Of a DNA stretch of 64,000 nt, positions 59,271-62,815 are shown one piece after another (the stretch's first letter is position 1; each line of letters opens with the position of its first letter). The notes beneath the pieces were generated by a model. The model saw only the letters and a program-made list of their open reading frames with translations. It did not search any database and was not told the origin of the DNA. This stretch comes from Candidatus Harrisonbacteria bacterium CG10_big_fil_rev_8_21_14_0_10_40_38 (lineage in GTDB: Bacteria; Patescibacteriota; Minisyncoccia; UBA6257; 1-14-0-10-40-38), in NCBI GenBank assembly GCA_002773535.1, contig PFAZ01000001.1:154806-218805 (forward strand), read 5' to 3'. Position numbers and translations under genes: made by a program.

Positions 59271-59825
59271 TCAAGCACTGCTTTCCCTGCCCTCTTTCAA
59301 AAGTTCTGTAAATCTATCTTTGAGTTTCTTTAGTTTTGGGCTTATTACAACCTGACAATAGGGTTTAGAAGAATTGTTTTTATAATACTCCTGATGATAC
59401 CCCTCTGCTTTATAAAAATGATCCAATGGCCTTACTTCTGTAACCACGTCTCCCTCTTCTTCTTTTGAAGCGTCTAATTCCTCAATAAACTTCTCGGCTT
59501 CTTCTTTTTGACTCTCGGTTGTGTAAAAAATAGCTGACCTGTATTGAGTGCCCACATCAGCCCCTTGTTGATTCAACGTCGTTGGGTCATGCGTAGCAAA
59601 AAATACAGTCAGCAAATCCCTATAAGAAATCACTGCCGGATCATACTCAATCCGTATCACTTCGGCATGCCCCGTCTTACCGCTCGAAACTTCCTCATAA
59701 GTCGGGTTTTCTGTATGCCCACCGGCATATCCACTCGTAACAGAATGCACCCCTTTCAGTTCCCCAAAAACTGCTTCAGTACACCAAAAACATCCACCTC
59801 CAAAAATTGCAATTTCTAAATTCAT
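59271..59825 (-). CDS. msrA: peptide methionine sulfoxide reductase MsrA
   Basis: GGGCFWCTEAVF active-site motif; ends with TGA at the expected length. Confidence 0.9.
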   Translation of the reverse strand: MNLEIAIFGGGCFWCTEAVFGELKGVHSVTSGYAGGHTENPTYEEVSSGKTGHAEVIRIEYDPAVISYRDLLTVFFATHDPTTLNQQGADVGTQYRSAIFYTTESQKEEAEKFIEELDASKEEEGDVVTEVRPLDHFYKAEGYHQEYYKNNSSKPYCQVVISPKLKKLKDRFTELLKEGRESSA

Positions 59826-60883: not shown

Positions 60884-61555
60884 TTAATAACTTGAATAAA
60901 GCGGCACTATATCGAGATCACCTTTCTGTGGCATACGAATCACATCGATAACTCTACCAAATATTCTATAATCGCGCTGAAGTATGATTGGTTTATATTG
61001 TGGATCCGAAGAAACCGGATGTAAAACTATTGCATTATTAGCAAACTGTATTTTTTTGATAACTGCGCAGTGATCAACGATAGTAACGACAAGATCATTA
61101 TCAGAAACTGCCTGTGTAAGCTCAACAAGAACATAGTCGCTATCACACACACCGGCATCAACCATCGAGTCTCCTATCGCCTTAATACTAACAACATCAT
61201 CACGCCTTTTGCCACACAATAAGTCACTTGCAACACAAATAAAATCTCCAAAATTTCTCTCGGCAAGAACAGACACATTATCACAACCAGCAGAAGCAAT
61301 TACGGGAATATTTACAGTCTCAACTGCATCCGCATATTCTCGTAGTCGAATCCCACGAGCCGCATGCTTCTCACGAAATATAAGACCTTTCTTTTCTAAT
61401 ACAGACAAATATTGCGTCACAGCCCTCGGAGAAGATAAGTTCATGCAGGCCATGAGTTCATTAGTCGTCGGCGACTCACCGGTCTCGATAATGTGTTTTC
61501 TAAGCGACTCATAAAATCTTCTTTGTTTTTGCGTAAGTTGCGCGACTAATGACAT
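60884..61555 (-). CDS. lexA: LexA repressor (S24 peptidase)
   Basis: N-terminal wHTH; Ala-Gly cleavage site (SAGCDN); GDSM Ser and a C-terminal Lys. Confidence 0.85.
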   Translation of the reverse strand: MSLVAQLTQKQRRFYESLRKHIIETGESPTTNELMACMNLSSPRAVTQYLSVLEKKGLIFREKHAARGIRLREYADAVETVNIPVIASAGCDNVSVLAERNFGDFICVASDLLCGKRRDDVVSIKAIGDSMVDAGVCDSDYVLVELTQAVSDNDLVVTIVDHCAVIKKIQFANNAIVLHPVSSDPQYKPIILQRDYRIFGRVIDVIRMPQKGDLDIVPLYSSY

Positions 61556-61565
61556 AAATTTTAAT

Positions 61566-61597
61566 AAATATATAAATAAGCGACTATTTATATATTT
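61566..61597. promoter_or_regulatory. candidate LexA operator: AAATATATAAAT-N8-ATTTATATATTT
   Basis: 12-bp perfect inverted repeat 10-40 bp upstream of the lexA start. Confidence 0.35.
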
Positions 61598-61649
61598 ATA
61601 ATATCAAAATATATAAAACATATACATGTGAATAACTTAAATAAATGAC

Positions 61650-62250
61650 GTCCTCCCCGCACTCCCCTTCGGGATCGTGCGGGGTTTCCTTTAGGCTCCG
61701 CCACTCATGAGAATTCACCAGTTATCTCTTTTCCTCTATCAGCTATGTTTTGACGTTCAATATAGCGACGTATGGTTTCTTCGTTCAAGCCAACGGTAGA
61801 TACAAAGTATCCAGTACTCCACATATTTCCTTTTTCATATATCTGATCAATGAATTTGTACCGCTTCTTGAGTTCATGACTTGAGTATTGTTTTAACTTC
61901 TGTACGACTGAGGAAATGGCATATTTGGGTGGTATTTTCATGAGAATATGCACATGGTCATCACCTGTATTGATTTCATGAAAATACCAGTCTGGGTGGT
62001 AACGTCCTGTGCGGTACAAATTCTTGATCAGATCCGTACGAACATAGTGTTTGAGTATTTTTCTACGATATTTGGTCCCTCAGACTATATGATACTGAAT
62101 CTGATAAACACTGTGGTTTAACTGGCGAATTCTCATGCTAACAGCGTAGCACGCACCTGCGTGCTACGCTCATTCATCCCCGCACTGCGCTCTCTCATTT
62201 CAATAGATGTCTGTACCCTTGGTCGCGACGAGCTTGTGCGGGGTTTCCTG
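61650..62250 (-). mobile_element. IS200/IS605-family insertion sequence (tnpA only) with terminal hairpins
   Basis: Left hairpin CCCCGCAC...GTGCGGGG (61654-61682); 12-bp-stem hairpin AGCGTAGCACGC-acct-GCGTGCTACGCT (62143-62170); repeated GTGCGGGGTTTCCT at 61675 and 62236. Confidence 0.7.
61705..62136 (-). pseudogene. tnpA: IS200-type Y1 (HUH) transposase TnpA with an in-frame TGA replacing the conserved Trp
   Basis: Continuous frame from ATG 62136: MRIRQLNHSVYQIQYHIV-TGA-GTKYRRKILKHYV...GDDHVHILMKIPPKY...WSTGYFVSTVG...IRRYIERQ. The HUH motif and catalytic Tyr are intact. TGA lies at 62079-62081. Confidence 0.7.
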
Positions 62251-62269
62251 AGAGGAAGTAAAAAGCGGC

Positions 62270-62638
62270 TCAAGATTGAGCCGCATCTACCACAGTCATT
62301 GCCTCTTTATGCTTGCAGGCAACAAAAGACCTTATTTTATCAAAAACACTTGGACTATCAGTTGGAGCACCTGTGTCGTCATCTACTGATCTTTCATTCA
62401 AAAAAACAAAAGCGAACTTAATAGGTTTCTCAGTTACCCCAACAACGACTTTCCCAGTAATTTCCTCATTTATATCACCCAGAATATTTCGACGCCAATA
62501 AAGAACATCAATCGAAGAACTACTGAGACGCAAATGGTTCTTTCCTTTAGTCTCTGCAAGACTAAGATCACCCAAAGTTTCAAGTAAATACAAAACCCTA
62601 TCAGCAAGTTCACGAGTCTCTTTACTAGCACAAAGCAT
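62270..62638 (-). CDS. hypothetical protein
   Basis: 122 aa with no motif recognised; abuts the IS end. Confidence 0.4.
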   Translation of the reverse strand: MLCASKETRELADRVLYLLETLGDLSLAETKGKNHLRLSSSSIDVLYWRRNILGDINEEITGKVVVGVTEKPIKFAFVFLNERSVDDDTGAPTDSPSVFDKIRSFVACKHKEAMTVVDAAQS

Positions 62639-62815
62639 TCCCTCTCCTCCAGTCAGGTGTAGTCTCCAAAAGAGTTAGTACTCTTCTGAACACTGCAACC
62701 AACCAAAAACCAGATTTTTAACGATCAAAGCTATATATTTATAGCACAACAAATTAATATCTGTCAATAGACAAAATAATACAAAAATCAAACAAGTCCT
62801 GATAGAATATATTTA

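Follow-up and report, generated by a model that had tools for sequence, protein, structure and literature searches.

A lone in-frame TGA at the conserved tryptophan of an IS200-group transposase gene in Candidatus Harrisonbacteria: probably a young pseudogene

What does an in-frame TGA signify when it falls exactly on the conserved tryptophan codon of a transposase gene? The question is raised by a tnpA gene on the minus strand of a 64,000-nucleotide stretch of DNA (the window) from a Candidatus Harrisonbacteria metagenome-assembled genome (MAG). An earlier note on this DNA had left two readings side by side, a very recent single-hit pseudogene and an import from a relative that reassigns UGA, and had held that both bear on horizontal gene transfer (HGT) in the lineage. 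Our analysis favours a recent TGG>TGA change in a single-copy, tnpA-only IS200-group element of a standard-code host, making the gene a young pseudogene, and we give this reading a probability of about 0.82.

We determined the limits of the element from a three-way DNA alignment with its two nearest relatives, L003 and L011, whose transposases are 90% and 83% identical in amino acids to that of the window, respectively, and whose flanks are unrelated. Homology between the three loci starts directly after a host hairpin followed by TTTTTA(C/A) and ends at ...GGACGTCATTTA. The whole IS200-group element is therefore 616 bp long and runs from position 62257 to position 61642 of the window, on the minus strand. 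The sequence GTGCGGGGTTTCC is found once at either end of the element and nowhere else in the window, and the termini, TTCCTCTC... and ...GTCATTTA, do not form inverted repeats. Both ends contain a subterminal hairpin on the minus strand. That of the left end (CCCCGCAC...GTGCGGGG, 62178-62243) folds as single-stranded DNA with -31.9 kcal/mol (z=-4.4), and its foot is kept in 15 relatives, with an A-U pair replaced by C-G in 5 of the 15, a covariation. That of the right end (CCCCGCAC GATCCCGAAGGGGA GTGCGGGG, 61655-61684) folds with -15.3 kcal/mol (z=-2.9) and is near-identical in L003 and L011.

A perfect 13-bp hairpin is located in the 5' leader (62143-62170, minus strand), 6 nt upstream of the ATG of tnpA, and is also present in relatives, where the sequences of its arms have changed. 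By analogy with the IS200 leader, this hairpin may limit translation of tnpA; for the leader structures of IS200, a passage of PMC13548323 cites Beuzon et al. 1999. Contigs L001 and L002, which carry the same locus from other samples, both begin at window position 62159, in the loop of this palindrome, and their shared break is probably an effect of the palindrome on the assembler. Neither tnpB nor iscB was found in the 616 bp of the element, whose other ORFs are short and unsupported, and an Rfam scan of positions 61300-62700 returned only a chance miRNA match (E=0.14) and no known RNA family on the element. The combination of a Y1 HUH transposase, subterminal palindromes and tnpA as the only gene makes this an element of the IS200 group of the IS200/IS605 family. 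It is present in one copy in the window, and a scan of JGI metagenomes for further copies returned only the same locus (L094); the host genome is not among the GTDB matches listed.

The tnpA gene (61705-62136, minus strand) reads from an ATG at 62136-62134 to a terminal TGA at 61707-61705, and the continuous frame of 144 codons described in the earlier note was recovered as 143 sense codons plus the stop, with no frameshift. Its translation is MRIRQLNHSVYQIQYHIV, interrupted by a stop and followed by GTKYRRK...GEFS and the terminal stop; the only internal stop is the TGA of codon 19 (62082-62080, TCA on the plus strand). The longest ORF remaining in tnpA is 104 aa long and lacks the YHIVW strand. 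An autonomous element is one with an uninterrupted transposase ORF, and here that ORF is interrupted at codon 19.

When the tryptophan was restored, TnpA matched the Pfam family Y1_Tnp (PF01797) over positions 1-121 of 121, with an E-value of 3e-32 and 111.6 bits against a cutoff of 23, and it matched the PDB structures of the S. tokodaii, IS608 and ISDra2 proteins with E-values of about 3e-17 to 5e-14. The internal stop does stand where the earlier note had placed it, at the conserved W or F of YHIVW-PKYRR (YHIVWGTKYRR in this element): of the 119 closest homologues, 113 have W at position 19, five have F and one has C, and W is also found there in the TnpA of IS608 (YHIVWCPKYRRK) and in S. 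tokodaii 2ec2.

The residues of the active site are unbroken. H61, H63, Y125 and Q129 align with H64, H66, Y127 and Q131 of IS608 and are invariant in the alignment of homologues; Q129, as the counterpart of Q131, is presumably a metal ligand. The HUH motif that had been recognised as DHVHIL is thus kept, its codons for H61-V62-H63 (61948-61956, minus strand) aligning with the HIH of IS608 (residues 64-66). The assignment of the catalytic tyrosine to STGYFVSTVG has to be corrected, as this tyrosine aligns with Cys111 of IS608, while the true one is Y125 of RRYIERQ (TAT, 61762-61764, minus strand), which is intact and aligns with Y127, given as the catalytic residue of IS608 TnpA in a passage of PMC3597680. 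No frameshift and no second internal stop were found in tnpA. The description of the gene as intact except for the TGA consequently holds for its frame and its active-site residues; it does not hold at codon 67, where a private GAA>AAA substitution (E67K, 61936-61938, minus strand) has replaced, four residues past the HUH motif, a glutamate present in all 119 of the closest homologues and encoded by GAA or GAG in L003 and L011. This second G>A change may itself harm the enzyme; with H61, H63, Y125 and Q129 kept in a gene that is otherwise clean, some leftover function is conceivable.

The same locus was found in four other public contigs (L001, L002, L092 and L093) from four samples (JGI 3300004208 and 3300025850; ENA ERZ27293412 and ERZ27293414), and these were 100% identical to the window, the TGA included. 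L001, L002, L092 and L093/L094 represent the same locus and are not independent copies. As the TGA is identical in four other contigs from four samples, it is not an assembly error. All of the database ORF calls for the locus are truncated (78-117 aa), as in NCBI PIR89507.1 (COU07_01235), and the best full-length match among 5.8 billion protein clusters was only 90% identical.

Comparison of codon 19 across related loci showed that it is TGG in all nine of the closest relatives (L003-L011). It is mostly TGG in the 80 GTDB loci among the matches listed, the others encoding F, V, I, C or L and none having TGA. The 19 loci of JGI metagenomes, counted without the host locus L094, have TGG in 18 cases, TTT in one and TGA in none, and the 42 loci on IMG/VR viral contigs encode F, W, I or L, again with no TGA. 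Tryptophan, as TGG, was present at codon 19 in 71 of 93 alignments of relatives (the listed GTDB loci included) and in 18 of the 20 JGI alignments that cover this position. The TGA at codon 19 is therefore private to one locus against about 150 related loci among the matches listed. Lone lesions elsewhere in such transposase genes are common among relatives: single lesions were present in 6 of the 80 listed GTDB loci, of which two, from one genome, have a TGA at R24, three (each from a different genome) have a TAG, and one has a frameshift.

The two copies with a TGA at R24 belong to the Ca. Staskawiczbacteria MAG MFD01223.bin.2.87. They are related IS copies, 99.7% identical, at different loci (L023:2893-3487 and L035:2893-3488), and they share an in-frame TGA at Arg24 of KYRR (CGA>TGA), with a one-base homopolymer difference in L035. 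A copy with the stop was thus propagated, be it through mobilisation in trans, through gene conversion or through readthrough, so that carrying a stop does not necessarily make a copy immobile.

The genetic code of the host was assessed on the window itself. With translation table 11, 79 ORFs without overlap were predicted, covering 86% of the window, and TGA ends 18 of these 79 predicted genes (23%). Five of the eight TGA-ended genes that we checked match Pfam families, with domains that are complete or in their expected position; complete domains were seen in four of them (PMSR 2-153/153, T2SSE 7-370/370, Peptidase_M50 3-221/221 and HAD_2 1-178/178). The PMSR domain is that of the msrA-like ORF (59271-59825), which ends in TGA, as the earlier note had said in support of TGA as a stop elsewhere in the window. 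A search among adjacent ORF pairs of the 79 for other genes split by a lone in-frame TGA found none. Together, the 18 TGA ends, the full domains and the lack of TGA-split genes establish that the host reads UGA as a stop and uses the standard code. The tRNAs of the window are Gln(CTG), Thr(CGT) and Gly(CCC), with no suppressor tRNA among the three. In a code with reassigned UGA, TGA is rare as a terminator and frequent at Trp or Gly positions, and neither the host window nor tnpA has this pattern. The internal stop itself stands in the context TGA-G, the commonest context of the genuine TGA stops of the host (7 of 18).

Relative to L003 and L011, codon 19 differs by one G>A transition (TGG>TGA), and the other two tryptophan codons of tnpA, W50 and W106, are TGG. 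When changes were polarised with L011 as the outgroup, 11 were placed on the branch of the window copy; 10 are synonymous and nine are GC>AT transitions, TGG>TGA included, so that the lesion fits a drift from GC to AT along this branch. The GC3 of the window copy is 0.375, compared with 0.33 in host genes, 0.43 in L003 and 0.535 in L011. Since this value is near that of the host and below those of the relatives, the copy was already drifting to host composition.

The dN/dS ratio between the window copy and L003 is 0.108 (dS 0.46), and those of the other two pairs are 0.07-0.08. These low ratios indicate purifying selection over nearly all of the separate history of tnpA, and the small excess of dN would leave, on a rough estimate, at most a few percent of the branch to neutral evolution. 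A check for accelerated protein change along the branch of the window copy found replacements about balanced between this branch and that of L003, with E67K as the sole outlier. Inactivation would accordingly be placed late on the branch. A very recent single-hit pseudogene, as the earlier note had proposed, agrees with the one G>A change, the lack of a second inactivating lesion, the dN/dS of 0.11 and the fact that no other copy is known.

The position of the element in the host genome follows a pattern of its clade. In independent copies, the left flanks end in TTTTTAC, TTTTTAA or TTTTTAT, and there is no flanking direct repeat. We compared the 60 nt upstream of the GGAAACCCCGC motif at 14 left ends of the IS200 clade (the window, at 62258-62284, and L003, L011, L014, L017, L018, L023, L025, L026, L027, L031, L035, L109 and L112), and 13 of the 14 lie directly after a GC-rich host hairpin with a T-run, an arrangement found at 4.7% of 426 random control positions. 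No sequence similarity links these hairpins to one another, not even those before the near-identical copies L023 and L035, and the T-tracts of terminators therefore appear to be what the element targets. A general excess of terminators upstream of elements of the IS200/IS605 family has already been published (PMC13548323).

In the window, a terminator scan identified the hairpin as the intrinsic terminator (62258-62284, minus strand; stem-loop 62284-62265, then TTTTTAC) of the upstream gene of 122 aa, and the IS begins immediately after it. This gene (62270-62638, minus strand) is an ORFan, with only a self match in the 5.8 billion protein clusters and no Pfam match, and a search for an empty, IS-free site by way of its protein recovered none, as the protein matches only itself. 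On the other side, the IS stands about 90 bp upstream of a LexA-like gene (60884-61555) in the same orientation. A perfect inverted repeat of 15 nt, made of A and T only (ATAAATATATAAATA / TATTTATATATTTAT, 61564-61599), lies between the right end of the IS and this gene and may be a promoter or an operator. Two other genomes contain head-to-tail tandem pairs of identical tnpA genes about 540-610 bp apart (L032:3001-4039 and L061:3001-3948), which is consistent with a right end (…ATTTA) that recreates the target for a second insertion.

The second reading of the earlier note, a recent import from a lineage in which UGA encodes an amino acid (Trp in code 4, Gly in code 25) or from a recoded phage, with the TGA as a leftover sense codon, is highly improbable. 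It would account for a TGA exactly at the conserved Trp, and some Patescibacteria, the Gracilibacteria and Absconditabacteria, do reassign UGA. However, the code of those lineages is code 25, in which UGA is read as Gly and not as Trp. Only one of the three Trp codons of tnpA is TGA, the closest relatives carry TGG, and an in-frame TGA at a Trp position occurs in none of the roughly 150 related loci among the matches listed. The host-like GC3 of tnpA also speaks against this reading, and the distance to the nearest relative, a dS of 0.46, does not point to a recent transfer. The named GTDB sources listed are Parcubacteria-type Patescibacteria, Saccharibacteria, Proteobacteria, Nitrospira and Omnitrophota, and no record of Gracilibacteria, Absconditabacteria or Mollicutes is among them; likewise, none of the listed loci comes from a record named as a code-4 or code-25 genome. 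A donor among recoded phages was considered and rejected, as identity to the IMG/VR relatives does not exceed 40%, two short fragments apart, and none of these relatives has TGA at codon 19. Since a donor with a reassigned code is unsupported, the locus bears only weakly on HGT in the lineage. An artefact of sequencing or assembly, with TGG as the true codon, would likewise surprise us greatly: single-base errors are known in MAGs, with nothing specific pointing to one here, but the base is identical in the contigs from the four other samples, and the truncated ORF calls of NCBI and Logan imply the same base.

Decoding of a leaky UGA by the near-cognate tRNA-Trp(CCA) would give a little wild-type TnpA, the stop acting as a throttle on an element that remains weakly autonomous. 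Readthrough of UGA by this tRNA is documented in bacteria, where variants with a 4-bp anticodon stem raise its level (PMC13092985), and UGA is the leakiest of the stops; insertion of Trp at codon 19 would restore the native TnpA (for background, see PMC13092985). The lack of another disabling lesion in the ORF also favours it, as does the related IS that has an in-frame TGA in place of R24 and occupies two loci of one genome. We nevertheless consider it unlikely. Programmed readthrough is marked by a conserved stop and by a stimulatory context or structure, and codon 19 has none of these: the stop is absent from all the listed relatives, no local structure surrounds it (fold z=+0.8), and TGA-G is the most frequent genuine stop context of the host. 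There is no sign of recent transposition, with one copy in the window and no near-identical copy in the databases, and the replacement of an invariant residue by E67K suggests that the gene is already under relaxed constraint. As for the Staskawiczbacteria copies, insertion of Trp would not restore Arg24, so mobilisation in trans or gene conversion fits that case better. Among the papers searched, none was found that combines IS200 tnpA with UGA readthrough. That the UGA at Trp19 is a reversible throttle, by which traces of wild-type TnpA enable an IS200 of low copy number to survive in a very small CPR genome, seems to us quite improbable; were it true, the TGA-bearing IS at two Staskawiczbacteria loci would be a second hint of mobile stop-bearing copies. 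Decoding as selenocysteine was tried as an explanation and rejected, as no hairpin lies downstream of the UGA and nothing points to Sec machinery.

We thus return to the young pseudogene as the preferred reading. The element directly follows a host terminator and precedes lexA, and its Y1/HUH transposase gene was under purifying selection, probably until recently. One G>A change, in keeping with AT-biased mutation, then converted TGG to TGA at Trp19, in the first beta-strand of the protein. The data show this lesion, its restriction to one locus, the code of the host and the earlier constraint, whereas the loss of function and its recent date are inferred. Translation would stop after 18 residues, so that no active TnpA would be made and the element would be stranded.

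Among known elements, this one is most like IS200 of Salmonella and E. coli and the IS200 group, in that it belongs to the 600-700 bp size range, encodes a Y1 HUH transposase (about 145 aa) and nothing else, and has subterminal hairpins, no terminal inverted repeats and a structured leader before the start codon. A terminator immediately upstream and a low copy number are further likenesses. Unlike in IS200, the upstream terminator is here host DNA, outside the element, and the ORF of the transposase contains a nonsense codon. We take its amino acid identity to characterised members of the IS200 group to be about 30-40%. TnpA also shares the fold family of IS608 TnpA (PDB 2A6M/2VJV) and ISDra2 TnpA (2XM3), with an E-value of 1e-15 and with the YHIVW-PKYRR strand and the HUH motif alignable, while IS608 and ISDra2 carry tnpB, which is missing from the element of the window. 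As its target, this element appears to use a T-run with TTTTA(C/T/A) at its end, compared with TTAC or TTGAT for IS608 and ISDra2. A UGA at a Trp position is shared with code 4, code 25 and the systems with a 4-bp anticodon stem in tRNA-Trp. In contrast to systems of reassignment or readthrough, it affects one codon of one gene, is not conserved, and occurs in a host that ends 23% of its genes at TGA.

These results remove a false lead on UGA recoding and recent HGT in this lineage. In annotation, the locus fits an IS200-family pseudogene rather than a 'hypothetical protein' of 78-117 aa. If readthrough of the UGA were true here, it would be a mode of transposase control. On the reading that we prefer, that of a young pseudogene, the locus offers a clean case in which a single GC>AT transition would have disabled an IS that is present only once in a Patescibacteria genome of reduced size.
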